Below, one piece after another: positions 2,494-18,178 of a DNA stretch of 64,000 nucleotides. The notes below the pieces were generated by a model. The model ran no database searches and was not told the origin of the DNA. It saw only the letters and a list, made by a program, of their open reading frames with translations. The stretch is taken from assembly GCF_035503745.1 (NCBI RefSeq), contig NZ_DATJTC010000002.1, forward strand, positions 14,736 to 78,735, read 5' to 3'. Each line of letters begins with the position of its first letter. Positions within the stretch are counted from its first letter, which is position 1. The position numbers and the translations under genes were made by a program. This DNA comes from Dyella sp. Its GTDB lineage: Bacteria > Pseudomonadota > Gammaproteobacteria > Xanthomonadales > Rhodanobacteraceae.

Positions 2494-5136
2494 TCAGCGC
2501 TGCAGCACGTTGCCGATGATCTCGCCCAGGTTGCGCGATAAGTCCTGCCGCCGGGCCAGATCCTCAAGCGCCGCATGCGCCGCTTCCCGCCGAACCGGCT
2601 CCAGCCGTTGCCACCCGTTGAAGGCCGTGGCCATGCGCGCGGCGATCTGCGGGTTAAGTGCATCCAGCGCGGCCAGCCGTTCGGTCAGCCAGCGATAACC
2701 GGCGCCATCGTCGCGGTGGAAGCCACTGGGATTGTTGCTGGCGAACGCGCCGATCACGGCGCGCGCGCGGTTGGGATTTTTCAGCGTGAAGGCCGGATCG
2801 CTTTCCAATGCCTTGACGATGGCGAGCGCCGGCTCGCCGGGCACCTGCGCCTGCACGGCGAACCATTTATCCAGCGCGAGCGGGTTGTCGGCATAACGCT
2901 GGCGGAAATCCGAAAGCGCCGCCGCGGCCTGCGCCGCGCGATCGCGGACCAGTACGCCCAGTGCGGCGAGGCGGTCGGTCATGCCGCTGGCCGTTGCGTA
3001 TTGCTGCGCCGCCAGCGCATGCGCGCCGTCGGCATCCACCAGGGCCAGCAGTTCGAGCACGCGGCGTTTGAGCCGGCGCCGGGCCTGGCTGTCGGCATCG
3101 AGCGACTGGCCGGCCTGCGATGCCAGTGCGCGATAGCGCGCAAGCAATGCCGGCGCGCCGATGTGTTTGGCCAGATGATGCTGCAACGCCTGGCGTTGCG
3201 CGTGAATGCTGACCGGATCCACTTCGGCCTGGCGATCGGCGAATTCGATTTCGCCGGGCGGTGTAAGCAGATCGGCCAGCAGGGCATCGTCGATCGTGTC
3301 CTGCTCGAACAACACGCCCAAGGCATCGCACCAGGCTTTGCATGCCTGCGTTTCGCCCTCGCGCAAGCTTTCGAACGCAAGCACAGCCAGCTGCTGGCCG
3401 GCCTCCCAGCGATTGAAGCCATCCGCGTCGTGCGTCAACAGCAGCGCCAGTTCGGCCGGCGAGTGGTTGTATTGCAGCACCACGGGCGCTGAGAAGTCGC
3501 GCAGCAACGAAGGTACCGGGTGGCTTGCGACATCGCGGAAAACAAGCTGCTGCGATGCTTTGTCGATCACTACGACCGTTTCCGTGCCGCCGTCGCTTCC
3601 CTCCAGGTGCAGCGGCAGCAACTGTCCGTTGCGATCGAACAGCGATAGCTTCACGGGAATCGGCACGGGTGCTTTCTCCGGCTGTCCGGCCGTGGCGCGC
3701 GTGTGTTGCGAGAGGGTCAGCGTGTATTGGCGTTTGGCCGCGTCGTAGTCGCCGTGCGCGTGCAGATGCGGCGTACCGGCTTGCGCATACCAGGCCAGGT
3801 ACGGCATCAAGTCGGTGCCGTTGGCATCGCCTAGCGCGCCGAGGAAATCCTCGATCGTCGCCGCGCTGCCGTCGTGGCGTTCGAAATAGGTGTCCATGCC
3901 GCGCCGGAAACCTTCAGGTCCAAGCCGGCCCGCGAGCATGCGCACCAGTTCGGAGCCTTTCTCGTAGACGGTGGCGGTGTAGAAGTTGTTGATCTCCCGG
4001 TACTCGGCCGGACGCACCGGGTGCGCCAGGGGGCCTGCGTCTTCGGGAAACTGCGTGCGGCGCAGCAGCGAGACGTCTTCGATGCGCTTGAGCGGCGCGG
4101 AGTTCATGTCCGCGGAAAACTGCTGCTCGCGGAACACGGTAAGGCCCTCCTTCAACGACAGTTGAAACCAGTCGCGGCAGGTCACGCGGTTGCCGGTCCA
4201 GTTATGGAAATACTCGTGGGCGACCACCGCTTCGACGGCGCGGTATTCCTCGTCGGTGCTGCTGTCAGGATCGGCCAGCAGGTACTTCGCGTTGAAGATG
4301 TTCAGGCCCTTGTTTTCCATGGCGCCCATGTTGAAGTCGTGCGTGGCCACGACGTGGAATACATCCAGGTCGTAGTTGCGACCATAGTTGCGCTCGTCCC
4401 AGCGCATCGAGCGTTCCAGCGCATCCAGCGCGTAGTGGCAGCGGTCGATGACGTTCGCTTCGGACCACATCACCAGTTTTACCGCGCGACCGTCCGCCGC
4501 AAGGTAATCGCGCTGAATGCTTTCCAGCCGCCCGGCCACCAGCGCGAACAGGTAGCTCGGTTTGGGATGCGGATCGACGAAGCGCGCCCAATGACGCCCC
4601 TCCGGCAACTCGCCGCTGCCATCGGGATTGCCGCCGGCCAACAGCACGGGAAAGCGTGCGCGATCGGCACGCAGCGTCACAGTGAAACGGGCGAGCACAT
4701 CGGGACGGTCCGGGAAAAAAGTGATGTGACGAAAGCCTTCCGCTTCACATTGGGTCAGAAGGAAGCCGCTCTCGCGCGAACCGGACAGGTACAGGCCCTC
4801 CAGCGTGGTATTGGCGGCCGGCTTAACCCGTACGCGGGTTTCCAGCACGCTGCCATCGTGTGCGCCATCCACTTCCAGCCCGTTGTCGTGGATGCGGTAG
4901 CTGCCCGTATCGAGCGGGCGGCCGTCCAGCGAGATCGCCAACAGCTCCAGGCCCTCGCCATCCAGTCGCAGCGGTTGGGGCTGGGTGGGATCGTGGCGCA
5001 CGTTGAGCCGGGCGCTGATCTCGGTGCTGTCGATGCCCAGGTCGACGTCCAGTTCGATGGCGTCCACGCTCCATGCGGGTCGGCGGTAGTCGTGCAGGCG
5101 GATGGGGGCGGGGGCAGTTTCGTTGGCGAGGGTCAT
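2494..5136 (-). CDS. pepN: aminopeptidase N (M1 family)
   Basis: FLLTQCEAEGFR, FNMGAMENKGLNIFN, HEYFHNWTGNRVTCRDWFQLSLKEG, C-terminal NPNRARAVIG; start taken at MTLANE. Confidence 0.96.
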   Translation of the reverse strand: MTLANETAPAPIRLHDYRRPAWSVDAIELDVDLGIDSTEISARLNVRHDPTQPQPLRLDGEGLELLAISLDGRPLDTGSYRIHDNGLEVDGAHDGSVLETRVRVKPAANTTLEGLYLSGSRESGFLLTQCEAEGFRHITFFPDRPDVLARFTVTLRADRARFPVLLAGGNPDGSGELPEGRHWARFVDPHPKPSYLFALVAGRLESIQRDYLAADGRAVKLVMWSEANVIDRCHYALDALERSMRWDERNYGRNYDLDVFHVVATHDFNMGAMENKGLNIFNAKYLLADPDSSTDEEYRAVEAVVAHEYFHNWTGNRVTCRDWFQLSLKEGLTVFREQQFSADMNSAPLKRIEDVSLLRRTQFPEDAGPLAHPVRPAEYREINNFYTATVYEKGSELVRMLAGRLGPEGFRRGMDTYFERHDGSAATIEDFLGALGDANGTDLMPYLAWYAQAGTPHLHAHGDYDAAKRQYTLTLSQHTRATAGQPEKAPVPIPVKLSLFDRNGQLLPLHLEGSDGGTETVVVIDKASQQLVFRDVASHPVPSLLRDFSAPVVLQYNHSPAELALLLTHDADGFNRWEAGQQLAVLAFESLREGETQACKAWCDALGVLFEQDTIDDALLADLLTPPGEIEFADRQAEVDPVSIHAQRQALQHHLAKHIGAPALLARYRALASQAGQSLDADSQARRRLKRRVLELLALVDADGAHALAAQQYATASGMTDRLAALGVLVRDRAAQAAAALSDFRQRYADNPLALDKWFAVQAQVPGEPALAIVKALESDPAFTLKNPNRARAVIGAFASNNPSGFHRDDGAGYRWLTERLAALDALNPQIAARMATAFNGWQRLEPVRREAAHAALEDLARRQDLSRNLGEIIGNVLQR

Positions 5137-5202
5137 GCGGCACGTGGACAAGGCAAAGTTGGATCAGGCTAACATGCGGGTTTTTCCCGTCGGGACAAGC
5201 GC

Positions 5203-6210
5203 ATGACCGTATTCAGCATCGAGTCGGACCAGCTGGGCGCGCACGAAATACTCGTTTTGCGCGACATTAAGCGTGGTCGCTGCGTCCGCCTGGCGCGCCG
5301 CGGCGCCGTCCTGATCGGTCTGGAGCAGGCGGTGGACGGGGGCGTGCGCCAGCTTGCGGACGGTTATCGGGACAGTGCCGAGCTGGAAAGCCGCCCCAGC
5401 TCGCGCTTCGCCATCATGGCGCCGTTCGCCAATCGCATCGCCGATGCGCGCTACCGCTTCGATGGCCGTGACTACGACCTGCAGCCGGGGGTGGAAGGCG
5501 CGCAACGCGCCGCCCGGCACGGTTTCGTGCGCGGCGTGGATTTCGACGTCGCGCACAAGCATGCGGACGAATCGGGCGCGCATGTCACCTTCGCCACCTC
5601 GGTGATCCGGCCCGGCAAGTTCGACGGCTATCCGTTTGCGGTCGATGTGCTGGTGACCTATACGCTCGATGCCAGCGGACTTACTCTCCAGGCGCACCTG
5701 CGCAACGTCGGCCAAACCGCGGCACCGTGTTTCTTCGGCTGGCATCCGTATTTCCGGCTGGGCGATCAGGGCATCGATGCGTGGGAGCTTACGGTTCCTG
5801 CCACGACGCTGGTGCGCACCGATGGCGATTTCATTCCGCTGCCGGGCGCGCAAGCGTATCAACCGCTCGACGAAGCGCCGCGCGAACTGGACTTCCGTCG
5901 CGCCAGGCCGATCGGTGCCACCGACATCAACCACGCCTACGCGAATCTCGCCAAAGATGCCGATGGCCGCGCGCGCACCAGCCTGCGCGACCCGGTCAGC
6001 GGCATGCGCATCCATGTATGGCAAGAGAGCGGCGTCATGCTGGTGTTCACCGCCGATACGGTGACGCGCGACGCGCGCCGTGCGGTGGCGCTGGAGCCGA
6101 TGGAAAGCATGTCCGACGCCTTCAACCGTGCCGATTGCGCCAGCGCCGTCCGCCTGGAACCGGGCGCGGAGCGGCTGTTTCGCTGCGGCGTGGAGATCGA
6201 CCCGGCATGA
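5203..6210 (+). CDS. aldose 1-epimerase family protein
   Basis: PFANRI..., HG motif, FGWHPYF, VALEP motifs of the galactose mutarotase-like family. Confidence 0.85.
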   Translation: MTVFSIESDQLGAHEILVLRDIKRGRCVRLARRGAVLIGLEQAVDGGVRQLADGYRDSAELESRPSSRFAIMAPFANRIADARYRFDGRDYDLQPGVEGAQRAARHGFVRGVDFDVAHKHADESGAHVTFATSVIRPGKFDGYPFAVDVLVTYTLDASGLTLQAHLRNVGQTAAPCFFGWHPYFRLGDQGIDAWELTVPATTLVRTDGDFIPLPGAQAYQPLDEAPRELDFRRARPIGATDINHAYANLAKDADGRARTSLRDPVSGMRIHVWQESGVMLVFTADTVTRDARRAVALEPMESMSDAFNRADCASAVRLEPGAERLFRCGVEIDPA

Positions 6211-7157
6211 GCGCATCGCTACCCACGCTCCAGCACATTCGCGATGCCGCCGCGCGGATCGCGCCCTACGCCACCCTGACACCGGTGTTGCGCAGCGATG
6301 AACTCGATGCCGTGGCCGGTGCCCAGCTGCACTTCAAATGCGAAAACCTGCAGCGCGGCGGTGCGTTCAAATTCCGCGGCGCGTGCAACGCGGTGTGGTC
6401 GTTGAGCGATGAAGAGGCCGCCCATGGCGTGGTGACGCACTCGTCCGGCAATCACGGCAACGCACTCGCGCTGGCGGCGGCGACGCGCGGCATTCCCGCA
6501 CATGTGGTGGTGCCCGAAGGCGCCGTGCGCGCCAAGCTCGAAGCGATCGAGCGCGCGGGCGCGATCCTGCATCGCTGCGCCCCCACCATCGCCGCGCGCG
6601 AAGCCAAGGCGGCCCAGGTGCAGCAGGCCACGGGAGCGATCATGGTGCATCCCTATGCCGATGCGCGCGTCATGGCCGGGCAGGGCACGCTGGTGCTGGA
6701 GCTGCTGCACCAGTGCGCAAGCCTCGATGCCCTGGTCACGCCGATCGGCGGTGGCGGCCTCTCCGCCGGCTGCGCCATTGCCGCGCACGGTTTGCAGCCA
6801 TCCATCGCGATCTACGGTGCGGAACCGGCCGGCGCGGCCGATACCGCGCAATCGCTGGCGCGCGGCGCGCGCATCGACAGCTTCACGCCGGACACGATGT
6901 GCGACGGCCTGCGCGCTTTCGTCGGCGAACCGAACCTGCAAGCGCTGCGCGAGCATGGCGTCAGCGTCATCACCGTAAGCGACGAGGAAACCGTCGCCGC
7001 AATGCGCCAGCTATGGCAGGCCTTGAAGATCGTGGTGGAAGTGTCGAGCGCCACGGTATTCGCCGCCGTGCTCAAGCAGCGCGAACGTTTCGCCGGCAAA
7101 CGCGTGGGGCTGGTACTTACCGGCGGCAATGTCGATCTTGATGCGCTGCCCTGGTAA
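6207..7157 (+). CDS. PLP-dependent Ser/Thr dehydratase / serine racemase-like protein
   Basis: FKCENLQRGGAFKFRGA, THSSGNHG, GGGGL, LTGGNVD; ATGA overlap with upstream gene; no ACT domain. Confidence 0.9.
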   Translation: MSASLPTLQHIRDAAARIAPYATLTPVLRSDELDAVAGAQLHFKCENLQRGGAFKFRGACNAVWSLSDEEAAHGVVTHSSGNHGNALALAAATRGIPAHVVVPEGAVRAKLEAIERAGAILHRCAPTIAAREAKAAQVQQATGAIMVHPYADARVMAGQGTLVLELLHQCASLDALVTPIGGGGLSAGCAIAAHGLQPSIAIYGAEPAGAADTAQSLARGARIDSFTPDTMCDGLRAFVGEPNLQALREHGVSVITVSDEETVAAMRQLWQALKIVVEVSSATVFAAVLKQRERFAGKRVGLVLTGGNVDLDALPW

Positions 7158-7291
7158 TGGTGCGTCGCATCGCCCGGCGAGCACGTTTTAGCGGTGCGTT
7201 ACTTTCAACCGACCGTGTAGGCGCGGGATTATCCAAACAACTGTCCCTGGCTGGTTTGGCTGGAGCCTGCGCCAAGAGCGTCGAGGGGCGG

Positions 7292-7345
7292 CTCCGCTTT
7301 GTAGAGTCCGTTGATGGGCTTGGCCAGCGCGTAGTCGTAGGAATC
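7292..7345 (-). pseudogene. IS3-family transposase relic
   Basis: Minus strand reads DSYDYALAKPINGLYKAE, close to the conserved DSYDNALAETINGLYKAE motif; flanks are degenerate. Confidence 0.65.
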
Positions 7346-7594
7346 ATGGCATCAATCGGTTGAGACGGTCGGTACGGAGCTGTCGATTCATCCGATCCAG
7401 CGATGACGGCGCGGTCTTGCCACTGAGCGTGGTGCGTATCCTTTGACCCTCTTTCCAAGGCCGCTCTTGTAGGAAAACCCTTATATCCGCGCCAGAAATA
7501 TCGTAACGGTCGCCCTGTAGGCTACTTATCACGATTCCTTCACAAGTTGGTGCTTACGTTTCCCGACATCGCAAGGGGTGGGAAGGACAAGCAA

Positions 7595-7918
7595 ATGGAT
7601 TTGGTTCGGTGCATCCTGCGGATGTGTCTGGGTTGGGCATGGAATGTTCGGGGCAACGCTGCCACCCGTCAGCGATCAAGAATCCCCGGCCCAGGTTTCC
7701 AGCGCTTAGGCGCATTGCTCGCGCTTGCGTTAGTAGCCATCAGCCACCCGGCATCCGTCATGGCGGACAGTGCTTCCTGCATTTCACCCTACGGATGCTT
7801 CTACAGCTTCGAAGGTCAATATGAAAACTGCGTGCAAGACATGCAGGCCGTGACGCATTGGACGCTCATCAAACCTTGCTATCTGCGCGGTTCGCGCGCT
7901 GACTCCGTTAAAGTATGA
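7595..7918 (+). CDS. hypothetical exported Cys-rich protein; possible orphan Rhs N-terminal module
   Basis: AAGGA RBS; hydrophobic LGALLALALVAISHPASVMA then a segment with 4 Cys; ATGA overlap with next ORF. Confidence 0.45.
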   Translation: MDLVRCILRMCLGWAWNVRGNAATRQRSRIPGPGFQRLGALLALALVAISHPASVMADSASCISPYGCFYSFEGQYENCVQDMQAVTHWTLIKPCYLRGSRADSVKV

Positions 7919-8151
7919 AGGCAGGTTTGGACTTTGAGGGGTTCCGAGTACCTAGGGCAGCCTGGTCGTTCAATGGCTCGATCCACGCTTTATTCAACGC
8001 CAGTGCGAGCGGCAGTTGCGACGCGGACGGCAACCAGGTGCAGGGCATGGGCGGATTAGGTATCCAACGGCAGTTAGGTTGCGACGTGATCAATCGCTTG
8101 TGCAAACCATCGACAACTCCAATGACACGAACTGACAGGGATATCAAATGA
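7915..8151 (+). CDS. hypothetical protein (78 aa), ATGA-coupled on both sides
   Basis: Start overlaps the upstream stop and stop overlaps the Rhs start; no clear RBS; may be a frameshifted continuation of the upstream ORF. Confidence 0.3.
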   Translation: MKAGLDFEGFRVPRAAWSFNGSIHALFNASASGSCDADGNQVQGMGGLGIQRQLGCDVINRLCKPSTTPMTRTDRDIK

Positions 8152-11100
8152 CTCGTATTTTTGGACTGATTCTCGGTGCGCTGTTGGCTGTTTCTTGCAG
8201 CGCCATTTCGATAAACGCGCATGCCGCCGATCAATCTGGTACGTATGAGACTCAAGGTGAGGCATATGCAGCGTGTAATGGGTTTGTTGCGTGGTTGAAT
8301 TCGCACGGACCTCTGAGTCCACCTTACTACTACACGTGCGAGGATGTGGTTCGCGGATCTTCTCCGCCTAGTCCACCTTGTCTAGGCAAGCCATTTGAAG
8401 GCGTAAATTACAGCTATGCCTATACGGTTTATTCCGAGCCAAATCATGACGATGGTGGTTGGGCGGGTTGGTACTTCTGGTGCGCTCCTACGTTTAGCCC
8501 AAGCAAGAACAATGGCTGCTCCTGTAGCGTAGCGGGTGACCCCATCAATCTGGGTACCGGTAACGAATACGAGGATCAAAAGGATTACTCATCCAGTGAC
8601 TCTCTACGGTTCGAACGCTACTACAACAGCAGCAATTCGATTACCCCGACCAACATCGGCGCGCAGTGGCTGGATAATTACGACCGCAGCATTCAATATC
8701 AGACCAGCACCACCCCTGTCGCGACTGTTTTTCGACCCGATGGGAAAGAGTTTGCCTTCCAGAAGGTCAATGGGGTGTGGGCCGCTGATCCAGATGTCAG
8801 CGATACGCTCACTGAGAGCGACAATGCCCTAGGCCAGGTTCAAAGCTGGACATATTTCGATGCCCAGACGCAGCAATACGAAAATTACAACGCAGGCGGC
8901 GCGCTAACCTCGATCGTTGATCTGAGCGGTCAAGTTACAACACTGACGTATAGCGATGGGACGACACCCACGACCATCGCACCGATGGCCGGGTTATTGA
9001 TTACCGTCACGGCACCCAGCGGGCGACAGCTCCAGTTCGTTTACAACGCCAGTAGCCAGATCACGCAGATCACCCTGCCTGACGGCGGCACGCTTGCGTA
9101 TGCATACGACACGTCTGGAAACTTGACTCAAGTGACCTATCCGGATGGCCGTACGCGCGTCTACAAGTACGACGAAAGTGGCAATGCCCCATCGGGGTCA
9201 CCGAATCTTTTGACGGGCATTATTGATGAGGCGGGGCAACGCTATGTGGACATCCACTACGACAGCCAGGGTCGTGCCATGTCGTCGCAGATAGGAGGCA
9301 TAGCCAATCTCACTCAGGTGGCTTACAACTCGGATGGAACGTCTGCCGTTACCTATCCGAGCGGAGTCCAAACCACGATTGGATTTGCAACCCCCTATGG
9401 CCGAGCGCAGATCGCGTCAGTGAGCCAGCCTTGCGGACCGGGTTGTGATCAGACGGCGGCGGCGCGTACGTATGACGCCAATGGCAATCCAGCGAGTGCC
9501 ACGGACTTCAACGGCAACGTCACTACCACCACCTACGACGTCAACGGCCTGCTCGATCAACAGATCGACGCGTCCGGATCTCCGGCCCAGCGCACCACCA
9601 ACTTCACCTGGAACACCACACTGCGCGTACCGCTGACGCGCACCGTGCTCGATGCCAACGGCAACACAGTGAGCAACACGCAATGGGTCTACAACGCCAC
9701 CGGCCAGACCCTGGCCCGCTGCGACATCGACCCGGCCAACAGCGCCGATAGCGGCTACAGCTGCTCGAACACCGGCGCGGTGCCGGCCGGCGTGCGCCGC
9801 CGCACCTACACCTACTGCACCGCCGTCGGAAGTAACTGCCCGCTGGTGGGCCTGATGCTCACCGCCACCGGCCCCCGTACCGATCTCACCCAGACGACGA
9901 GCTACAGCTACTACACCAGCAGCAGCACGACGGGTTGCGGCACGCCCGGCGCCGCCTGCTACCAGCCCGGCGATCTCTACCAGGTCACCGACGCCCTGGG
10001 CCACGTCACCACCATCGCCTCCTACGACGCCGACGGCCGCATCACCCGCCTCACCGACGCCAACGGCGTCAACACCGATCTCACCTACACCCCGCGCGGC
10101 TGGCTCGCCTCGCGCACGGTGGGCGGGGCCACCACTCGCTTCACCTATACCGCCTACGGGGCCGTGCAAACCGTCACCGATCCCGATGGCGTCACCACCA
10201 CCTACGGCTACGATGCCGCCCATCGCCTGACCACCATCACCGATGCCCTGGGCAACACCATCCAGTACACCCTGGATGCCGCCGGCGACAAAACCGCCGA
10301 ACAGGTCTATGACTCGTCGGGCACCTTGCACCAAAGCCTCACCCGCACCTTCAACACCCTGGGCCAGCTCACCAGCGTGGTCGATGGGCTTAGCCACACC
10401 GTGTTCAACGCCAGCGCCACGGGCAGCTACGACGCCAACGGCAACCTGATCCAGAGCAGCGACGGCCTGGGCATCGCGCGCCAATTGGGCTACGACGCCC
10501 TGAACCGCCTGGTGCAGACCCTGGACAACTACAACGGCAGCGACCCTGCAACGAAGAACACCACCACCCAGTACAGCTACGACAGCCTGGACCGCCTCAC
10601 CCAGGTCACCGACCCCAGCAACCTCGCCACCACCTACAGCTACGACGGCCTCAGCGACGCCACCGGCCAGGTGAGCCCCGATACGGGCACGACCAGTCGC
10701 ACCTTCGATGCCGCCGGGAATGTGCTGACACGGACCGACGCCAAGGGCATCACCGCCAGCAACACCTACGACGCACTGGATCGGCTTGTCAGCACCCGCT
10801 ACCCCGACAGCACGCAGAACGTTACCTACAGCTACGACGATCCCAACGGCACCACCGGCTGCAGCACCAGCGATCCGGTCGGCCGGTTGACGCGGATCAT
10901 CGAAAGCGCCGTCACCACCGTCTACTGCTACGACGCCCGCGGCAACGTGATCCAGAAACAACAGATCACCAGCGCCGGCACCGACACCACCGGCTACGCC
11001 CTCACCAACGCCGGCCGCCTCAGCGGCATCGTCTACCCCGACAGCACCCTGGTCAGCTACAGCCGGGATGGCGATGGGCGCATCACCGGCATCAGCGTGA

Positions 11101-12614
11101 CGCCGCCCAGCGGCAGCGCCGGCACGGCGGTGAGCGCGGTCACCTACCAGCCCTTTGGCCCGGTCAGCGGCTACACCCTGGGCAACGGCCAGCAGATCGC
11201 CCGCACCTACGACGCCAACTACCGGCTGACGGACCTCACCAGCCCCGCGTTCACCCTGCACGTGGCACGCGATGCGATGGGCGACATCACGGCCATCGGC
11301 AACAGCCCCGGCGCCAGCCCGGCGACGGAGACCTATAGCTACGACCCGCTATACCGCCTCACGGCGGTGACGGAGGCCAACGGCACGACGCTGGAAAGCG
11401 TCACCTACAACCAAACGGGTGATCGCCTGACCAAGACCGGCAGCGGCCTCGCTACCGGCACCTACAGCTACACCCCGAACACGCATCAACTCATTGCCAC
11501 GGGCAACGCCACACGAACGGTCGATGCGGACGGCAACACCACGGCGATCAGCGAAGCCGGCAGCACGTATGGCTTTGGGTACAACGACCGCAACCGCATG
11601 AGCACCGCGCAACTGGGTGGGAGCACGGTTGCCAACTACACCTACAACGCGCTGAACCAGCGCATCCAGAAGGTTGCCGGCAGCAACGCCGAGCGTTACG
11701 ACTACAACGAAGGCAGTGGGATACTTGCCGAATACGGTGCTACCAACCGGGACTATATCTGGATGGATGGCATTCCGGTGGCCAACGTGGACACGGCCAA
11801 TGGCACAAGCACGATCGCTTACGTCACCGCCGACCAGTTAGGCACGCCACGCGCCATTGCAGACAGTTCCGGAAACACCGAGTGGCAGAATGCCTACCAG
11901 GGTAATCCGTGGAACGAAGTAGCGCCGACGAGTAGCGGTTATGTCTATAACCTTGGGTTCCCAGGGCAGTATTTCGACGCCGAAACGGGGCTCAGTTACA
12001 ACGTCAATCGTGATTACGACTCAAGCACTGGGCGGTACGTGCAAAGTGATCCGTTTGGTCTGAATGGTGGTCTAAGTACGTACGCATATGCCATCAGTGA
12101 CCCACTGAGTACATTTGACTCTCTCGGTCTCCGCCCATTGACCGCCGGTGAAGTTGCGATGCTTACTCCGATTTTCAACAATACAGTAAATTTTTCGCAG
12201 GTCGATATCGAATCGGGCACAGATGGTGATTTTCGCGCAGCCATACCACTGGCTAACGGTGATGCCGTAACGATAAACAACACGATTCACTTTCCATCAT
12301 CGCAGTACCTGCCGGACTTCTCACAGGGTGACTTGAGTGATCAGGCGTGGCTTGCACACGAAGTGACACACATTTTTCAGCACCAAAATGAACCGGGCTA
12401 CACATACGGAAAAGCCATGAGAGAAACGTGGAAGTATGGCAAGCATGTCTACGACTACTCGCTGACAGAACACAAATGCTTCACTGATTACCGATACGAG
12501 CAGCAAGCTGCGATAGTCCATGACTACTTCGTTGCCTTGCATCAAGGAACTCCTGATCTGAGCGGATTTGAAAATTTGCTTGGTCCTATGGGCCTTGGCA
12601 TGAACCACAATTAA
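8148..12614 (+). CDS. rhs: Rhs/YD-repeat polymorphic toxin with N-terminal signal peptide, DUF6531-like domain and C-terminal HEXXH metallopeptidase
   Basis: Signal peptide MTRIFGLILGALLAVSCSAISINAHA; GDPINLGTGN...FERYYNS; many YD repeats; core YNLGFPGQYFDAETGLSYNVNRDYD...DPFGL...DSLGL; C-terminal AHEVTH and YEQQA. Confidence 0.93.
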   Translation: MTRIFGLILGALLAVSCSAISINAHAADQSGTYETQGEAYAACNGFVAWLNSHGPLSPPYYYTCEDVVRGSSPPSPPCLGKPFEGVNYSYAYTVYSEPNHDDGGWAGWYFWCAPTFSPSKNNGCSCSVAGDPINLGTGNEYEDQKDYSSSDSLRFERYYNSSNSITPTNIGAQWLDNYDRSIQYQTSTTPVATVFRPDGKEFAFQKVNGVWAADPDVSDTLTESDNALGQVQSWTYFDAQTQQYENYNAGGALTSIVDLSGQVTTLTYSDGTTPTTIAPMAGLLITVTAPSGRQLQFVYNASSQITQITLPDGGTLAYAYDTSGNLTQVTYPDGRTRVYKYDESGNAPSGSPNLLTGIIDEAGQRYVDIHYDSQGRAMSSQIGGIANLTQVAYNSDGTSAVTYPSGVQTTIGFATPYGRAQIASVSQPCGPGCDQTAAARTYDANGNPASATDFNGNVTTTTYDVNGLLDQQIDASGSPAQRTTNFTWNTTLRVPLTRTVLDANGNTVSNTQWVYNATGQTLARCDIDPANSADSGYSCSNTGAVPAGVRRRTYTYCTAVGSNCPLVGLMLTATGPRTDLTQTTSYSYYTSSSTTGCGTPGAACYQPGDLYQVTDALGHVTTIASYDADGRITRLTDANGVNTDLTYTPRGWLASRTVGGATTRFTYTAYGAVQTVTDPDGVTTTYGYDAAHRLTTITDALGNTIQYTLDAAGDKTAEQVYDSSGTLHQSLTRTFNTLGQLTSVVDGLSHTVFNASATGSYDANGNLIQSSDGLGIARQLGYDALNRLVQTLDNYNGSDPATKNTTTQYSYDSLDRLTQVTDPSNLATTYSYDGLSDATGQVSPDTGTTSRTFDAAGNVLTRTDAKGITASNTYDALDRLVSTRYPDSTQNVTYSYDDPNGTTGCSTSDPVGRLTRIIESAVTTVYCYDARGNVIQKQQITSAGTDTTGYALTNAGRLSGIVYPDSTLVSYSRDGDGRITGISVTPPSGSAGTAVSAVTYQPFGPVSGYTLGNGQQIARTYDANYRLTDLTSPAFTLHVARDAMGDITAIGNSPGASPATETYSYDPLYRLTAVTEANGTTLESVTYNQTGDRLTKTGSGLATGTYSYTPNTHQLIATGNATRTVDADGNTTAISEAGSTYGFGYNDRNRMSTAQLGGSTVANYTYNALNQRIQKVAGSNAERYDYNEGSGILAEYGATNRDYIWMDGIPVANVDTANGTSTIAYVTADQLGTPRAIADSSGNTEWQNAYQGNPWNEVAPTSSGYVYNLGFPGQYFDAETGLSYNVNRDYDSSTGRYVQSDPFGLNGGLSTYAYAISDPLSTFDSLGLRPLTAGEVAMLTPIFNNTVNFSQVDIESGTDGDFRAAIPLANGDAVTINNTIHFPSSQYLPDFSQGDLSDQAWLAHEVTHIFQHQNEPGYTYGKAMRETWKYGKHVYDYSLTEHKCFTDYRYEQQAAIVHDYFVALHQGTPDLSGFENLLGPMGLGMNHN

Positions 12615-12628
12615 GAGAGGGACGATTG

Positions 12629-13027
12629 ATGAAGTTCATTTCAAAGGTCTGCGTTGCCCTGTTATTTGTCGTCTTACTTTGCGGGCTCTCATCTCGATTC
12701 GCTATCGTGGTATCTCAGTCACAAGGTCAAGCACCCTCTTTTGTAATCAAAAGGACAAGCCATGGCCTACTTGGTGAAAGCGTTGAAATCAACTCGTTCT
12801 CCGTAGTCAAGAAGAATGACGCCGGGCAGTGGGACTATAAGCATCCCGTCTGGGCATTCGATCTTCCTCCTGGCACGGGAAAAGAGTTGTCAAAAGTCAA
12901 TTATGGCCAAGTCCCTGCGGGTTTCATTGAAAGAACAAAGGCATTAAAGCTAACTAGTGGTATTACATATTTGGTGCTTGGTTTTGGTCTTGGATCTGAT
13001 GGTTCTGTCCAATTCGTTGCCAAATGA
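12629..13027 (+). CDS. candidate cognate immunity protein, exported
   Basis: 14 bp after the Rhs stop, GAGG RBS, N-terminal hydrophobic stretch, low GC. Confidence 0.7.
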   Translation: MKFISKVCVALLFVVLLCGLSSRFAIVVSQSQGQAPSFVIKRTSHGLLGESVEINSFSVVKKNDAGQWDYKHPVWAFDLPPGTGKELSKVNYGQVPAGFIERTKALKLTSGITYLVLGFGLGSDGSVQFVAK

Positions 13028-13045
13028 TCGCGCCACAGGGTGCTG

Positions 13046-13074
13046 AAAAAAAAGCGCCATACGGGCGCTTTTTT
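13046..13074. terminator. bidirectional Rho-independent terminator
   Basis: A-tract AAGCGCC-ATACG-GGCGCTT T-tract. Confidence 0.75.
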
Positions 13075-13131
13075 GTTTTGGAACATCCGATTCCCGGGGG
13101 CAATACTTCGATGCAGACGTAAGCTCCCCCG

Positions 13132-13431
13132 TCAAGCGGACATTTCAGAAGTAGAACTTTTGGCGTAGTGATCGCGATATTCGGCCGGCGTCATAGCGCC
13201 GAGTGCATCATGGGGACGTTGCTCGTTGTAGTCGATGAGGAACTGCCACGTGGCCTCGCGCACGTCGTCGAGACGGGTGAAAAGGTATTGATCGAGCACC
13301 TCTTCACGATAGGTGCGGTTGAAGCGTTCGATGTAAGCGTTCTGGTTCGGCTTTCCCGGCTGGGTGTACCGGATGGCCATGCCATGCGCCTTGGCCCATT
13401 GCGTGAACACTTCGCCAAGGAACTCCGGCCC
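13132..13431 (-). pseudogene. IS3 orfB 3' part (GPEF...GKPNQNAYIERFNRTYREE)
   Basis: Integrase-core C-terminal motifs; separated from the 5' part by IS110. Confidence 0.9.
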
Positions 13432-13523
13432 ATAGTACATCTGGAAGTATGGTTAGCAGATGGGCAGTCACCGTCATTGAGATCATCCTGAGGGTTCTCA
13501 CACGCCTTAGGAGTTCAACGACG

Positions 13524-14801
13524 ATGACTGCCCCTACTGATGCTACGCCCGTTGCCACCTGGGTGGCGATTGATATCGCCAAACGCCACCATGCGGTGTT
13601 GATCGAAGTGCCGGATGAGAAGCGCCGACGTTTTAGGATGGCTAGTTCATCTGAAGATCACCAAGCATTGGTCGCATTGCTCCACTCATTACCTCAGCCC
13701 ATCCGGGTCGCCATGGAGCCGACTGGTGACTGTCACCGCACTTTGGCCTATCGGCTGGTTGATGAAGGTTTTGACGTTTTCCTCGTTTCATCGATTGCCG
13801 GGGCTCGCTATCGAGAGGCCATGTTCAACTCGTGGGACAAGAACGATCCCAAGGACGCAAGCGTGATCATGGCCTTGCTCAAGCAGGGGATGACGATGCG
13901 TTATGTCGATCCACTCGTAGCGGGGCATCATGGCTTGCAGGAGCTGTCCAAAACGTATTACCAGATTAGCCTTGCTCGCACACGGCTGCAGCACAGCCTT
14001 CTAACCCATTACCTTCCACTGTATTTTCCCGAGATGGAGCGCTACTTCAACACGTCTCATGCAGATTGGTTTGTTCGCTTCCTGCTCCGGTTTCCCACTG
14101 CCGCTTCGGTTCATCGACTCGACCGCGAAACCTTCCGGCAACAAGCCTGGGAACTGGTGGGAAGAAAGGTGAATAAGACAACGTGGCTAAGCGAATTGTA
14201 CGATTGTGCAGGCCACAGTATCGGTTTACCCGTTGCTGAGGACTCACTGGCGATCACGACCTTTCGCCTTCAACTTGAGCGATACCAAGTACTGATTGAG
14301 CAGCGCGACGCTTTGTCCGCACAAGCCCATCAACTTTTGAATGGCAACCCCGATTATGACGTCCTGTGTTCTCTCCCAGGCGTGGGACCAGTCATCGCGT
14401 TGACCATCTTGGCTGAGGCCGGCGACATGCGTCGCTTTGCTCATCATCGACAATTTCTCAAGTACTGCGGACTGGACCTGGCCAAGTCTCAATCAGGCGA
14501 ACGCCGCGGTCAGGAGCGCTTGTCCAAACGAGGCAATGCGAGACTCCGTTTTGCCTTTTGGTTTGCGGCCACTATCGCTGTGCGGATGCGTGAAAACAGC
14601 TTCCGAAACAAGTATGAGCGCTATATCCAAAATGACCCGAAAAATGCTGATCGAAAACGTAAGGCGCTCACCGCCGTCGCTGCCAAAATGGCGCGCGTCG
14701 CTTATGGATTAGTCAAGCATCAGACCCTTTACCGCTGTTACTTCGAGACCGCTTTACCCCGTGGATCGATCCCGCTCAGTAGGGCCGTTGGGACCGCTTA
14801 G
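13524..14801 (+). CDS. IS110 family transposase/recombinase (425 aa)
   Basis: AGGAG RBS; DEDD RuvC-like motifs AIDIAK, MEPTG, KNDPKDA; C-terminal LPGVGP...SQSG...SKRGNARLR. Confidence 0.95.
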   Translation: MTAPTDATPVATWVAIDIAKRHHAVLIEVPDEKRRRFRMASSSEDHQALVALLHSLPQPIRVAMEPTGDCHRTLAYRLVDEGFDVFLVSSIAGARYREAMFNSWDKNDPKDASVIMALLKQGMTMRYVDPLVAGHHGLQELSKTYYQISLARTRLQHSLLTHYLPLYFPEMERYFNTSHADWFVRFLLRFPTAASVHRLDRETFRQQAWELVGRKVNKTTWLSELYDCAGHSIGLPVAEDSLAITTFRLQLERYQVLIEQRDALSAQAHQLLNGNPDYDVLCSLPGVGPVIALTILAEAGDMRRFAHHRQFLKYCGLDLAKSQSGERRGQERLSKRGNARLRFAFWFAATIAVRMRENSFRNKYERYIQNDPKNADRKRKALTAVAAKMARVAYGLVKHQTLYRCYFETALPRGSIPLSRAVGTA

Positions 14802-15026
14802 GATCCTGTAGATAATGCTCGGACCTTCCACGGGTTCTCCATGCTGTTTTAGGCACGTTCGAGGCCGCTTCGGACCTCGTGTTCACTATGGTTAGATTAG
14901 GAGACCTTGACGACGTGGAAGCCCATGGGACATCGCGGATGAAGGTTGCGGTAGTTGTCCAACAGACGCTAAAAGCGGCTGCGCATTGCTGTAACCTGAT
15001 TACGTACTTGACTCCAGAGTTAGCAC
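14802..15026 (+). ncRNA. putative bridge/seek RNA in the IS110 downstream non-coding end
   Basis: 225-bp non-coding end; nested stems enclosing an internal loop with segments matching the element's donor junction. Confidence 0.55.
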
Positions 15027-15587
15027 GTTGTCCGTTCGTAGCACTTGAGGCAACGCACGCTCCTGGGCGATACGCTCGAAGATGCGCACCAAGCGTGCCG
15101 ACGTGATCGAGGTATCGATCTCGATATGCACAGCCTCGCGATTAAAGTCATCGACGATGTTGAAGGTACGCAATGGGCGCCCGCAGATCAGGGCATCCAG
15201 CATAAAGTCGGCCGACCACACCATGTCCGGGCGCTCCGGCACGTACAAGGGCACACGTTCACGCTTGGGCAAGCGCCGCGTCGCGGCCCGGCGCAGGTTG
15301 AGTTTCATGTCACAGTACACCCGGTAAATACGCTTGTGGTTCCATTGCGGATGGGTTCTTTCAAGGATCTGGCAACACTTGTCGAAGCCGCGGCTAGGCT
15401 TGGCCTCGATCAACTTGGACAATGCCGCGATAACCTCAGCGTCCCGCACCGTCCAATCCAATGGCGGCGCGTACCACGCCGCGCGGGACAGGCCGACGCA
15501 GTCGCAGGACCGGCGCAAGGGGCGTGCATGCACCTCAACGAGAAAACGCACCGCCTCGCGCTTCTGCGCCGGCCCTACAATTTTTTT
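15027..15587 (-). pseudogene. IS3 orfB 5' part
   Basis: HTH_21-like region, WNHKRIYRVY, WSADF, RTFNIVDDFNRE, QVLRTDN; begins at the A7 slippery site 15581-15587. Confidence 0.9.
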
Positions 15588-15841
15588 GCGATCAGGTCCT
15601 TCATCGCCGCATTGTCCAGCGCCAGCTCGGCATACATTCGCTTGAGCTTGGCGTTCTCCGCTTCCAGCTCCTTGACCCGTTTCAGGTCCGAAGCGTCCAT
15701 GCCCCCGTACTTCGATTTCCACTGGTAGTACGTCGCCGAGCTGATCCCCGCCTGCCGGCACAAATCCTTTACCGGTACACCGGCATCACCCTGCTTGAGA
15801 ATCGAGACGATCTGCGCCTCGCTGAATTTGGATTTCTTCAT
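15575..15841 (-). CDS. IS3 orfA
   Basis: MKKSKFSEAQIVSILKQ...GISSATYYQWKSKYGGM...LKRMYAE; GGAGG RBS. Confidence 0.93.
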   Translation of the reverse strand: MKKSKFSEAQIVSILKQGDAGVPVKDLCRQAGISSATYYQWKSKYGGMDASDLKRVKELEAENAKLKRMYAELALDNAAMKDLIAKKL

Positions 15842-16030
15842 GGAACCTCCTAGCGGAAAAGATGCCAGAAAGTTCTACTTGCTGTGTGTCCAGGAACTGG
15901 GGGAGCTTACGCAGAGACCGGGCTCGAATACAACGGCGCACGCTATTACGACTCGGCGTCGGGACGCTTCCCGCAAGCCGACCCGATGCACATCAAACTG
16001 CTGGGCCAGTTCGGCCGGCGACAGTGATCC

Positions 16031-16187
16031 GCATTCCTATGACCGGTCAATAAATAATCCGGCCGCCAACCTTGCTCAGTTCTAAGCTAGGTATAAGAAC
16101 GGTAATTATGAAGCACAAGCACAGATGTGGCAGAGCTATGTGTATTCGAAGCTAACGGAGTGGAGATGTAAACCAAGCCACGTTTAA
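16031..16187 (+). pseudogene. degenerate C-terminal toxin remnant resembling the Rhs metallopeptidase tail
   Basis: PHSYDRSINNPAANLAQF*ARYKNGNYEAQAQMWQSYVY resembles VYDYSL...YRYEQQAAIVHDYF; in-frame stop at 16083. Confidence 0.45.
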
Positions 16188-16212
16188 TCGAAGGTTCATG
16201 CGAGTGCAAACA

Positions 16213-16569
16213 ATGAACATTGTGAAGAATTTTCTGATATCCGGTGTCGTGATTTTTTCTGCATGTGTCGCACCTGGAGATGGCGTCAAGGCAAAGAGCG
16301 GCTATGCAGCCGCTGCACCTGTGATTAAAGCACTTGACGCGTATCATCAGGTCAATGATGCCTATCCCTCTTCGTTGAATCAGCTAGTTCCAAAGTTCAT
16401 TGCCGGCGATAGGTTGGTAGCTACCACGCCAGATAGAAAAGTAACGCCGTTTAAGTATCGACAAGTCGATAACGGTTATGAGCTATCGTTTTCTTATACG
16501 GGTCCCGGTACGAACCAATGTGTGTACAGGGAAAGTGCCAAAGCGTGGAAATGCTACGGCGCTTACTAG
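16213..16569 (+). CDS. lipoprotein with GspG/pilin-like helix; orphan immunity candidate
   Basis: Lipobox-like IFSAC; IKALDAYHQVNDAYPSSLNQLV; C-terminal Cys pair; low GC. Confidence 0.65.
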   Translation: MNIVKNFLISGVVIFSACVAPGDGVKAKSGYAAAAPVIKALDAYHQVNDAYPSSLNQLVPKFIAGDRLVATTPDRKVTPFKYRQVDNGYELSFSYTGPGTNQCVYRESAKAWKCYGAY

Positions 16570-16816
16570 GACTGCCCGAACACCATAAGCGGTCGTGCCA
16601 CGGAAAACCGTTGCGATCGGTGCATTACGGTGAGCAGAAATTCATACAGCAACACTCTCTATAAAAACATTGAAAATTTTCTCGGCCGCACGATGACAAC
16701 GACGATTGCCGATAAGGCGCAAGATCGCTCATCCCTGGGTCTTGGCTGTTGCCCTTTGATCAGCCGCTTGGAACACTCGTGACCTGCTACGGAAAATTGG
16801 TCGTACCACCAGGAAA

Positions 16817-17173
16817 ATGGCGCATATGTCACCGACATTGAGGGGTGGGCTGATATCCATTTTCCTGACCGCTGTCGCGTTCGTCGCGGCAGTTCAATGT
16901 GCTTACACTTTTGGTCAGCTCTATCACGTCGCGATCATGGCGTATAAAACAGGAGAAGTGCAGCCGCATCTGGTTAGCTTCGGCCGACTTGGCGTTTATT
17001 CATATTTTTCATTGGCAACCATTATCGCGGTCACAATGCTTTTATTCATAAAGTCTAAAGGAGGCGTTAGGCGTGCAAAGGTCGCCAGCGCGTTCTTAAT
17101 AATCTCTCTCGTCAGTGCCGCTGTCTTCGCGGTGCTGGTCCTACTCCCGGTCTCTGATGTGGTCATTAGGTAG
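16817..17173 (+). CDS. small membrane protein (about 3 TM); orphan immunity candidate
   Basis: AGGA RBS; three hydrophobic segments; low GC; co-oriented in the Rhs tail. Confidence 0.6.
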   Translation: MAHMSPTLRGGLISIFLTAVAFVAAVQCAYTFGQLYHVAIMAYKTGEVQPHLVSFGRLGVYSYFSLATIIAVTMLLFIKSKGGVRRAKVASAFLIISLVSAAVFAVLVLLPVSDVVIR

Positions 17174-17408
17174 CCGCAAAGCGCTCCTACACCGTTCGGT
17201 TTTCGCGACAAGAACAACGAGAACAAAGGAGTCAGAACCTGAGGTTTCCCAGCGTTTCATGCTGTCGCTGTCATCTGGTCTGGTCCCTTTGTTAAATGTG
17301 ACTGTCGGGATGTCTGTTCCCCTGCAAGGAGAGTCCCATTCTCGAACGCAAGTGCAGCTCGCAATAAACACGTGGCTTATCCCCATAACTCAATTTCGAG
17401 AAGAGGTT

Positions 17409-17600
17409 ATGATCAAAAATAAGATAGCGGAGAGTGAAATTAGCGCTCTGATGCTTGAGATAAATGCAAAACTGAATGAGTCCGTTCGAGGGGTTCAAGA
17501 GACCTGTGACGACGATGATTTCAGAGCCTATCGACGAGCGGTTGGGGAAATTATGGGCGAGATTTTATTTGAGATTGCCAAAAGGGGAGAGTTGCGGTGA
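17409..17600 (+). CDS. small helical protein, probably C-terminally truncated at the island border
   Basis: AGAGG RBS; MIKNKIAESEISALMLEINAKLNESV...FRAYRRAVGEIMGEILFE, then runs into the tag RBS. Confidence 0.55.
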   Translation: MIKNKIAESEISALMLEINAKLNESVRGVQETCDDDDFRAYRRAVGEIMGEILFEIAKRGELR

Positions 17601-18178
17601 CCACACGCATACGTTGTCATTGGGCGGCCGATGGGGAGTTGATGCAGGCGTATCACGACGCCGAATGGGGCGTGCCGCTGCACGACGATCGCATGCTGTT
17701 CGAATTTCTGTGCCTGGAAGGTGCGCAGGCGGGGCTTTCGTGGCGTACGGTGTTGCACAAGCGCGACAATTATCGGGGCGCTTTCCACAATTTCGACATC
17801 GCGCGCGTTGCGGCAATGAAGGATCGCGAGCTGGAAAAGTTGCTGCTCGATCCCGGCCTGATCCGCAACCGCCTGAAGATGACCTCGGCGCGCGGCAATG
17901 CGAAGGCGGCGCTGCAGGTCATCGAGGAGTTCGGCAGTCTCGATGCGTATCTGTGGTCTTTCGTCCAGGGCAAGCCGGTGCAGAACCGCTGGCGCGCGAA
18001 GGGCGAGGTGCCGGCCAGCACGCCGCTGTCCGATCGCATGAGCAAGGATCTGAAAAAGCGCGGCTTCCGCTTTGTCGGCACCACCATCTGCTACGCCTTC
18101 ATGCAGGCCACCGGCATGGTCAACGATCATCTGGTGGATTGCTTCCGGCACAAGGCGTGCGCCGCCAAGCGCGCATAG
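17597..18178 (+). CDS. tag: DNA-3-methyladenine glycosylase I
   Basis: RCHW...YHDAEWG, FEFLCLEGAQAGLSW, VGTTICYAFMQATGMVNDHLVDC. Confidence 0.96.
   Translation: MTTRIRCHWAADGELMQAYHDAEWGVPLHDDRMLFEFLCLEGAQAGLSWRTVLHKRDNYRGAFHNFDIARVAAMKDRELEKLLLDPGLIRNRLKMTSARGNAKAALQVIEEFGSLDAYLWSFVQGKPVQNRWRAKGEVPASTPLSDRMSKDLKKRGFRFVGTTICYAFMQATGMVNDHLVDCFRHKACAAKRA

Follow-up and report, generated by a model that had tools for sequence, protein, structure and literature searches.

Organization of the rhs Gene

The window analyzed here is a stretch of 64,000 nucleotides (nt) of Dyella sp. DNA (contig NZ_DATJTC010000002.1, positions 14,736 to 78,735), which lies within a 152-kb contig (C2) of a genome of 4.1 Mb. 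At positions 8148–12614 of the plus strand, the window contains the rhs gene, an intact open reading frame (ORF) encoding an Rhs protein of 1488 amino acids (aa) with a predicted toxin at its C-terminus and, directly downstream, a putative immunity gene. It is considered probable that these genes belong to a horizontally acquired toxin–immunity island of Dyella encoding a Sec-dependent Rhs cage toxin that is independent of a type VI secretion system (T6SS).

The Rhs protein begins with a predicted Sec signal peptide (residues 1–26; 8148–8225), followed by a variable head rich in Cys, Tyr, and Trp (residues 27–129; 8226–8534), the DUF6531 domain, or N-terminal plug of the shell (residues 130–204; 8535–8759; Pfam E-value = 1.5e-11), a YD-repeat shell with the RHS core, delimited by Pfam and core-end alignment and ending in ...DPFGL...DSLGL at residue 1328 (8760–12131), and a putative C-terminal toxin (residues 1329–1488; 12132–12611). 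The Pfam domains found were DUF6531, 11 RHS repeats (RHS_repeat, E-value = 1.5e-65), the RHS core, whose score of 24.1 bits is under the cut-off of 27.9 bits for this family, and eCIS_core/DUF4157 (residues 1348–1414), while no match to PAAR was found in the 1488-aa protein. Since the rhs ATG follows the in-frame stop upstream of it after just four codons, a PAAR domain or any other N-terminal extension is impossible. The core end (..SDPFGL..DSLGL↓RP, residues ~1296–1329) carries the DPxGL autoproteolysis motif ahead of the variable tip. The features that define an Rhs toxin, namely, a YD/RHS shell, a conserved core end before a variable tip, and an immunity gene directly downstream, were present. 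Five close Cys pairs were identified in the shell (429/433, 525/539, 557/564, 597/604, and 905/927); they were conserved in four homologues and suggest that the protein folds in an oxidizing compartment. In the AlphaFold2 (AF2) model of residues 1–330, built from an alignment of 21 sequences, a confident beta-sheet appeared from approximately residue 141 onward.

Signal Peptide and Head

The putative signal peptide is composed of an n-region (MTR), a 17-residue hydrophobic h-region (IFGLILGALLAVSCSAI), and a c-region with an AxA site (SINAHA↓A). Signal peptides in 32 related loci (30 distinct genes) were called by a simple heuristic scan for the n-, h-, and c-regions and the AxA site; an equivalent was identified in 24 of these loci, and the remaining eight gave no match to the motif by which the head was located. 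The AxA site was kept among the relatives as AHA↓A, ARA↓G, AMA↓Q/D, or VHA↓Q. A first-pass annotation made from the DNA sequence had proposed both this AHA-A site, which is borne out by the scan, and a weak alternative lipobox, AVSC, which did not hold: its Cys17 was not conserved, the closest relative having AFMC and other relatives lacking a Cys there. Because the AxA site is conserved and the lipobox Cys is not, the Rhs protein is read as a predicted substrate of signal peptidase I. The candidate reading as a lipoprotein processed by signal peptidase II was ruled out, since the lipobox Cys varies while AxA is retained.

The head contains 6 Cys and 14 Tyr and Trp residues in total and no known domain, in agreement with its initial description as a Cys/Tyr/Trp-rich segment that is not PAAR. 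In the 24 related loci, the heads, in most cases 70–150 residues long, contained 4, 6, or 8 Cys, always an even count, and then ran into the motif KNxG..C..GDPIN, with which DUF6531 starts. No Pfam match was obtained for the head; a word-based search with residues 1–135 among 5.8 billion proteins returned the query itself only, and a HMMER search with residues 25–130 among 1.84 billion representatives gave just three spurious matches driven by repeats. Its weak relatives appeared only within the family, in a six-frame search.

Heads of another type, 320–380 aa long, were observed after the signal peptide in L089 (genome G223), L093 (genome G111), and protein P0012 (GVPF..GDVVVT..G.G..WD...); they look like an NHL-like beta-propeller, which would make these relatives teneurin-like. 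The genome of the studied Dyella strain also encodes a second YD protein with a signal peptide (contig C15, positions 4490–10192, minus strand; 1901 codons from stop to stop; ..WVLAGSCHA↓QT), the C-terminus of which resembles repeated FN3-like modules and not a toxin.

Toxin Tip and Immunity Gene

The tip begins after DSLGL, at residue 1329, and contains the motif HEVTH (12357–12371). It matched the effector domain of P. aeruginosa VgrG2b (PDB 6H56) with an E-value of 6.4e-11 when used as a single sequence and of 1e-15 when used as a profile with eight homologues. In the alignment of eight homologues, HEVTH (HExxH) and the distal motif YEQQAAIV were invariant. All six closest homologues of the tip (55–61% identity) were located on Rhs proteins, five of which had signal peptides, and the sixth, P0010, seems to be cut at the N-terminus. 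A VgrG2b-type tip like that of the window's Rhs was also present in protein P0012. Proteins of the VgrG2b family are lethal in the periplasm and harmless in the cytoplasm, require the glutamate of HExxH, and seem to release lipoproteins from membranes and disturb division; their immunity proteins are exposed to the periplasm as soluble proteins, outer-membrane lipoproteins, or proteins anchored in the inner membrane (Wood et al. 2019; PMC6899460). Thus, the assignment of the tip as a homologue of the VgrG2b-Cter/Tpe-type DUF4157 zinc metallopeptidases is supported, and its predicted site of action is the envelope of competitor bacteria, because the toxin family acts only from the periplasm and the partner gene product is predicted to face it. 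Of the two kinds of target put forward in the first-pass annotation, the envelope of competitors therefore agrees with the tip and its partner, whereas eukaryotic or fungal targets do not, since both the toxin family and the immunity protein point to bacteria.

The gene located 14 nt past the rhs stop codon (12629–13027, plus strand) encodes a protein of 132 aa with an N-terminal hydrophobic helix carrying the invariant LCG(L/F)SSRF, followed by an immunoglobulin (Ig)/FN3-like beta-sandwich (predicted local distance difference test (pLDDT) of 84.8 in the AF2 model). Fold searches gave generic Ig/FN3-like matches only, with no specific match in Pfam or PDB. Only three homologues of this protein were found in the protein search, and a fourth (L115–L117) was found by tblastn; the two homologues that could be placed, including L118, and that of L115–L117 each lie directly after a toxin of the same type. 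Because this pairing with the toxin type is conserved, the assignment of 12629–13027 as the cognate immunity gene of the tip, with a predicted periplasm-facing product, is well supported.

Split Relatives and Route of Export

In many relatives of the Rhs protein, the shell was split over two genes at one fixed point, corresponding to approximately residue 800 of the window's Rhs; these were the Rhodanobacteraceae loci L110 (G175:C1:3479600-3490200), L114, L119–L127, L130, and L131. The genes for the N-terminal half (N-half, ~800 aa) encode a signal peptide, a head, the plug, and half of the shell, and all of them end in ..NRLVQT(L/I)DNYNGTN. One to four such genes stand in tandem and are followed by a single gene for the C-terminal half (C-half), which corresponds to residues 802 to ~1330 plus the toxin. 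In eight of the nine C-halves inspected, a signal peptide of their own is cut just before QTANTKT (for example, ..AAPVAA↓QTANTKT and ..ATPVMA↓QTANTTT), and the part of the ninth (L126) that was read ends short of the site; loci L110 and L114 add two further C-halves with signal peptides. An internal piece of the cage with its own Sec signal implies that proteins of this lineage are exported via Sec and assembled afterwards. Literature searches for the split Rhs layout, as well as for Rhs in Dyella or Rhodanobacter, gave nothing relevant. It should be noted that protein P0013 (962 aa, from a metagenome), a C-terminal part of an Rhs headed by a signal peptide, starts at approximately residue 575 of the window's Rhs and suggests a possible second split site.

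The absence of vgrG, eagR, and hcp from the window, noted in the first-pass annotation, extends beyond it. The 152-kb contig C2 contained no match to TssC, VgrG, PAAR, or Hcp, and the whole genome contained no match to DUF1795/EagR (PF08786). The T6SS genes of the strain (2 TssC, 4 VgrG, 4 Hcp, and 5 PAAR, with two T6SS clusters) are all located outside contig C2. No prePAAR motif was found for the Rhs protein, and VgrG, PAAR, and Hcp were likewise absent from 365 kb of related loci (35 loci).

The phylogenetic profiling against secretion systems that had been proposed was carried out on 301 Rhodanobacteraceae genomes. Relatives of the Rhs protein were found in 112 of them by a six-frame search with the first 260 residues, several of the matches including the head, and TssC was found in 119; among the 112 Rhs-positive genomes, 53 were without TssC. 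Ten TssC-less genomes with a signal-peptide Rhs also lacked Hcp and VgrG; in eight of these the signal peptide was called by the heuristic scan, and in the other two (G154 and one of three genes of G022) it was read from the N-termini. According to this phyletic pattern and to the signal peptides of the C-halves, the predicted Sec export of the Rhs protein and its independence of T6SS, as first suggested from the window, are supported. A dedicated transporter or adaptor was also considered and ruled out, because no gene family recurs beside approximately 20 independent relatives.

Type II secretion systems (T2SS) were traced by GspG, as T2SSL (PF05134) was too insensitive a marker in Rhodanobacteraceae. 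GspG was present in all 11 genomes checked, including the ten devoid of TssC, Hcp, and VgrG. In Xanthomonas perforans, the Rhs/YD bacteriocin Bcn-A (~1400 aa; Marutani-Hert et al. 2020) is active in the supernatant, mostly in the fraction >100 kDa; this activity disappears when xpsD (T2SS) is mutated, and its immunity protein is predicted to lie in the inner membrane (PMC7259588). Because of the analogy with Bcn-A and the presence of GspG in all genomes checked, T2SS is predicted as the most likely exit for the Dyella Rhs.

Genomic Island, Remnants, and Other Elements

The rhs locus is bordered by core genes of Dyella, namely, a gene encoding a pyridoxal phosphate-dependent enzyme on the left (5727–7157, Pfam) and tag on the right (17597–18178, Pfam). 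The best protein matches of tag were from D. psychrodurans, D. humi, and D. choica (85–89% identity). In a DNA comparison with seven relatives, including these three species, the flanks were collinear up to ~7156 and again from ~17586, and in Dyella sp. RRB7 (L009) both flanks were only ~150 bp apart. The collinear flanks and the short gap in RRB7 indicate that the rhs locus sits in an island of 10.4 kb (7156–17585), the GC content of which is 47–59% against ~66% in the flanks. Within rhs itself, the GC fraction changes from ~0.53 in the first kilobase and 5' third to 0.63–0.66 in the core and then drops to 0.47 over the tip and the immunity gene, a mosaic that would fit recombination at both ends of rhs.

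Two ORFs directly upstream of rhs, both on the plus strand, are remnants of an N-half module. ORF-A (7595–7918) retains the start of an N-half, with a signal peptide (..HPASVMA↓DS) and ~50 residues of a Cys-rich head, after which it is truncated; it resembles the head encoded by the second N-half gene in the Dyella locus L110 (42% identity over 99 aa, E-value = 7.5e-13). ORF-B (7915–8151) retains the end of an N-half (shell residues ~746–790), and its tail is frameshifted: residues 746–790 of Rhs matched positions 7972–8106 in a tblastn search of the window (58% identity, E-value = 2e-9), and in many loci the terminal part of N-half genes was matched as well. ATGA overlaps link ORF-A to ORF-B and ORF-B to rhs.

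Downstream of the immunity gene, an IS3-family element was identified on the minus strand (13132–15841; orfA 15575–15841, orfB pieces 15000–15761 and 13132–13440; Pfam HTH_Tnp_1, rve, and rve_3), with an IS110-family element inserted in its integrase-core gene (transposase 13449–14801, plus strand; Pfam DEDD_Tnp_IS110 and Transposase_20). It is followed on the plus strand by an orphan fragment of an Rhs core end (..GLEYNGARYYDSASGRFPQADP..; 15911–15997), which comprises 29 residues, matches Rhs residues 1278–1306 (tblastn, 55% identity), soon hits a stop, and is taken, from its sequence, to be a dead, displaced toxin cassette. Farther downstream, also on the plus strand, are ORFs for a 123-aa candidate lipoprotein (16198–16569) and for a 118-aa protein (16817–17173) and a 63-aa gene (17409–17600), for which the listed 161-aa ORF (17115–17600) is probably too long. 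The 123-aa ORF had no Pfam match and no homologue in its own genome or in the fetched loci; only its position would make it a candidate immunity gene for the dead cassette. The 118-aa ORF had no Pfam match and no homologues in the fetched data. The 161-aa ORF was similar (tblastn, 30% identity over 119 aa) to an open frame of 81 codons on contig C13 (25436–25681) that directly follows an Rhs C-terminal toxin of the same genome; this likeness makes 17409–17600 a putative orphan immunity-like gene for a different toxin. The same region of contig C13 (24327–26649, minus strand) contains an array of Rhs C-terminal fragments with small genes behind them.

The first-pass annotation had treated the immunity gene and these three ORFs as one array of four immunity genes, three of them for exported, lipoprotein, or membrane proteins. 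The predicted localization is upheld by the hydrophobic N-terminus of the first protein, the lipobox-like IFSAC of the second, and the three hydrophobic segments of the third, with the fourth being cytoplasmic. The array itself is not: the IS3 and IS110 elements and the orphan Rhs fragment part the first ORF from the rest, and only the first gene is supported as an immunity gene.

Thus, an N-half module that has decayed upstream and a dead, orphan cassette of a toxin downstream show a locus remodelled by cassette exchange, and the remnants together with the GC mosaic point to such exchange at both ends of rhs. A broader proposal is possible, although we would not yet favour it: that Rhodanobacteraceae harbour an Rhs lineage in which both ends of the cage are modular, the first ~800 residues form an exchangeable cassette, the cage is assembled after export from two secreted proteins, alternative heads set the target range as the receptor-binding domains of colicins and CdiA do, and the fused gene of the window, with the remains of an N-half in front of it, is the trace of one exchange of this kind.

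Proposed Mechanism and Alternative Explanations

In the proposed mechanism, the Rhs precursor would cross the inner membrane via Sec, and signal peptidase I would cut it after AHA, as indicated by its sequence and by conservation in the relatives. The protein would fold in the oxidizing periplasm, where the six Cys of the head and the five Cys pairs of the shell probably form disulfides. The YD shell would enclose the toxin, and the aspartyl autoproteolysis usual for Rhs proteins would free the tip after DSLGL, as the motif suggests. The protein would exit the cell most likely via T2SS, by analogy with Bcn-A, this being the weakest step, and the hypervariable head would most likely pick the target cell. 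The freed tip would act as a zinc metallopeptidase of the VgrG2b/Tpe type, for which homology was demonstrated and whose family kills only from the periplasm. The membrane-tethered, periplasm-facing beta-sandwich protein, paired with this toxin type in the relatives, would neutralize it.

Several points weigh against this reading. A secreted Rhs protein would have to carry a periplasmic toxin over the outer membrane of the target. The head had a pLDDT <50 in the AF2 model and, with no fold and no relatives outside the family, its role is a guess. T2SS is universal in the genomes examined and hence does not discriminate. The upstream module is decayed, and the native promoter may have been lost with it. 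The presence of Rhs and of TssC was positively associated across the family (odds ratio of 2.4), which may reflect lifestyle or genome size and is no dependency; two T6SS clusters and four vgrG genes are present in the strain itself, which leaves the use of T6SS in this strain a formal possibility.

Among the alternatives, it is unlikely that the Sec-exported protein remains cell-bound, whether in the periplasm or on the surface, acting by contact only or as a WapA- or XadM-like adhesin and not as a released bacteriocin. In its favour, domains that are lineage-specific and follow a signal peptide have been proposed to be surface anchors (PMC3482391), Gram-negative teneurin-like YD proteins are predicted surface lipoproteins (PMC13018210), and the island contains no release genes. 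However, conservation is seen neither for the lipobox nor for any anchoring partner gene beside the relatives, and the sole Xanthomonadales Rhs bacteriocin that has been tested was found in the supernatant and not in the cell fraction (PMC7259588).

It is quite improbable that the locus is a decaying, unexpressed relic, with insertion sequences in the island and a broken front module that may have held the promoter. The nested IS3 and IS110 elements, the dead orphan cassette, and the degenerate N-half upstream, which overlaps rhs at an ATGA, would fit this explanation, as would a consensus scan of the locus for promoters and terminators, which revealed no convincing promoter but was uninformative. 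Against it, the 4.5-kb ORF and the immunity gene are both intact, and the AxA site, DPxGL, HExxH, and the conserved Cys pairs have all been kept.

Least credible is that the protein is T6SS cargo, its hydrophobic N-terminus serving for insertion into the membrane or being bound by a chaperone, with one of the four VgrG spikes as its carrier: the T6SS gene complement of the strain (TssC, VgrG, Hcp, and PAAR), the first description of the toxin family as a T6SS effector, and the Rhs–TssC association speak for it, whereas the lack of PAAR, a prePAAR motif, an Eag chaperone, and a vgrG gene on the 152-kb contig, the relatives in 53 TssC-less genomes (ten confirmed by three markers), the C-halves with their own signal peptides, which make sense for Sec export only, and the conserved Cys pairs, which suggest an oxidizing folding compartment, speak against it.

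Comparison with Known Systems and Significance

The locus had been regarded in the first-pass annotation as the best candidate for an undescribed system. This view is not retained, because a "T2SS/Sec-dependent" route, which has a signal peptide as its mark and also covers RHS repeats, was catalogued for polymorphic toxins by Zhang et al. in 2012 (PMC3482391), and Bcn-A provides a precedent (PMC7259588). The RHS toxins of this class, like the Dyella Rhs, have RHS repeats behind a signal peptide, a toxin at the C-terminus that varies, and an immunity gene next to them, and lineage-specific domains located right behind the signal peptide are described there as well, for MafB-N and others; the class is a computational catalogue in which the head family of Dyella is not named and the outer-membrane step is without experiments (PMC3482391). 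Sec signals have also been predicted for Gram-negative teneurin-like YD proteins in a 2026 paper (PMC13018210). Bcn-A is a Xanthomonadales Rhs/YD protein similar in description to the Dyella Rhs, but it was modelled with a beta-propeller, needs ORF2–4, and has no signal sequence reported on ORFA (PMC7259588). Thus, the Dyella Rhs is a further example of a catalogued class and not an undescribed system.

The toxin domain of VgrG2b-Cter and Tpe1–Tpi1 (6H56) is homologous to the Dyella tip, which keeps HExxH; toxicity restricted to the periplasm and periplasm-facing immunity proteins are known for that family (PMC6899460) and predicted for Dyella. In the known cases this domain rides on VgrG, PAAR, or T6SS cargo, whereas in Dyella it is the predicted payload of a signal-peptide Rhs.

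The two-protein shell of the Tc toxin, TcB–TcC, is comparable with that of the many split relatives, but the latter lack TcA, SpvB, and the propeller, both of their halves carry Sec signals, and the gene of the window is in one piece; neither TcA nor SpvB nor a beta-propeller was found in the Pfam scan of Rhs or among the 25 most frequent of the 79 neighbour families of the relatives. MafB of Neisseria resembles the Dyella Rhs in its signal peptide, genus-specific N-terminal domain, polymorphic C-terminal toxin, and unexplained route over the outer membrane, but it has no Rhs shell, and its lipoprotein partner gene MafA is always present. Among monoderms, WapA of Bacillus subtilis and further YD toxins that depend on Sec combine a signal peptide, a YD shell, a polymorphic toxin, and an immunity gene and are independent of T6SS; exit from a monoderm involves no outer membrane, and WapA is bound to the cell wall.

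A lead of greater novelty lies in the modularity at both ends together with the two-piece cages of the relatives in which both pieces carry signal peptides, of which the window retains a relic only. For the biology of these bacteria, the finding means that a periplasm-acting toxin known first as a domain of a T6SS spike (VgrG2b) would also be carried on an Rhs cage exported via Sec, in bacteria that are frequently without T6SS. This sharpens the question, for the Sec-dependent polymorphic toxins of diderms, of how such proteins leave the producer and cross the outer membrane of the target, for which Rhodanobacteraceae, as non-pathogenic bacteria of soil, offer many natural variants: one-piece and two-piece cages, one to four alternative N-halves, and genomes with and without T6SS.

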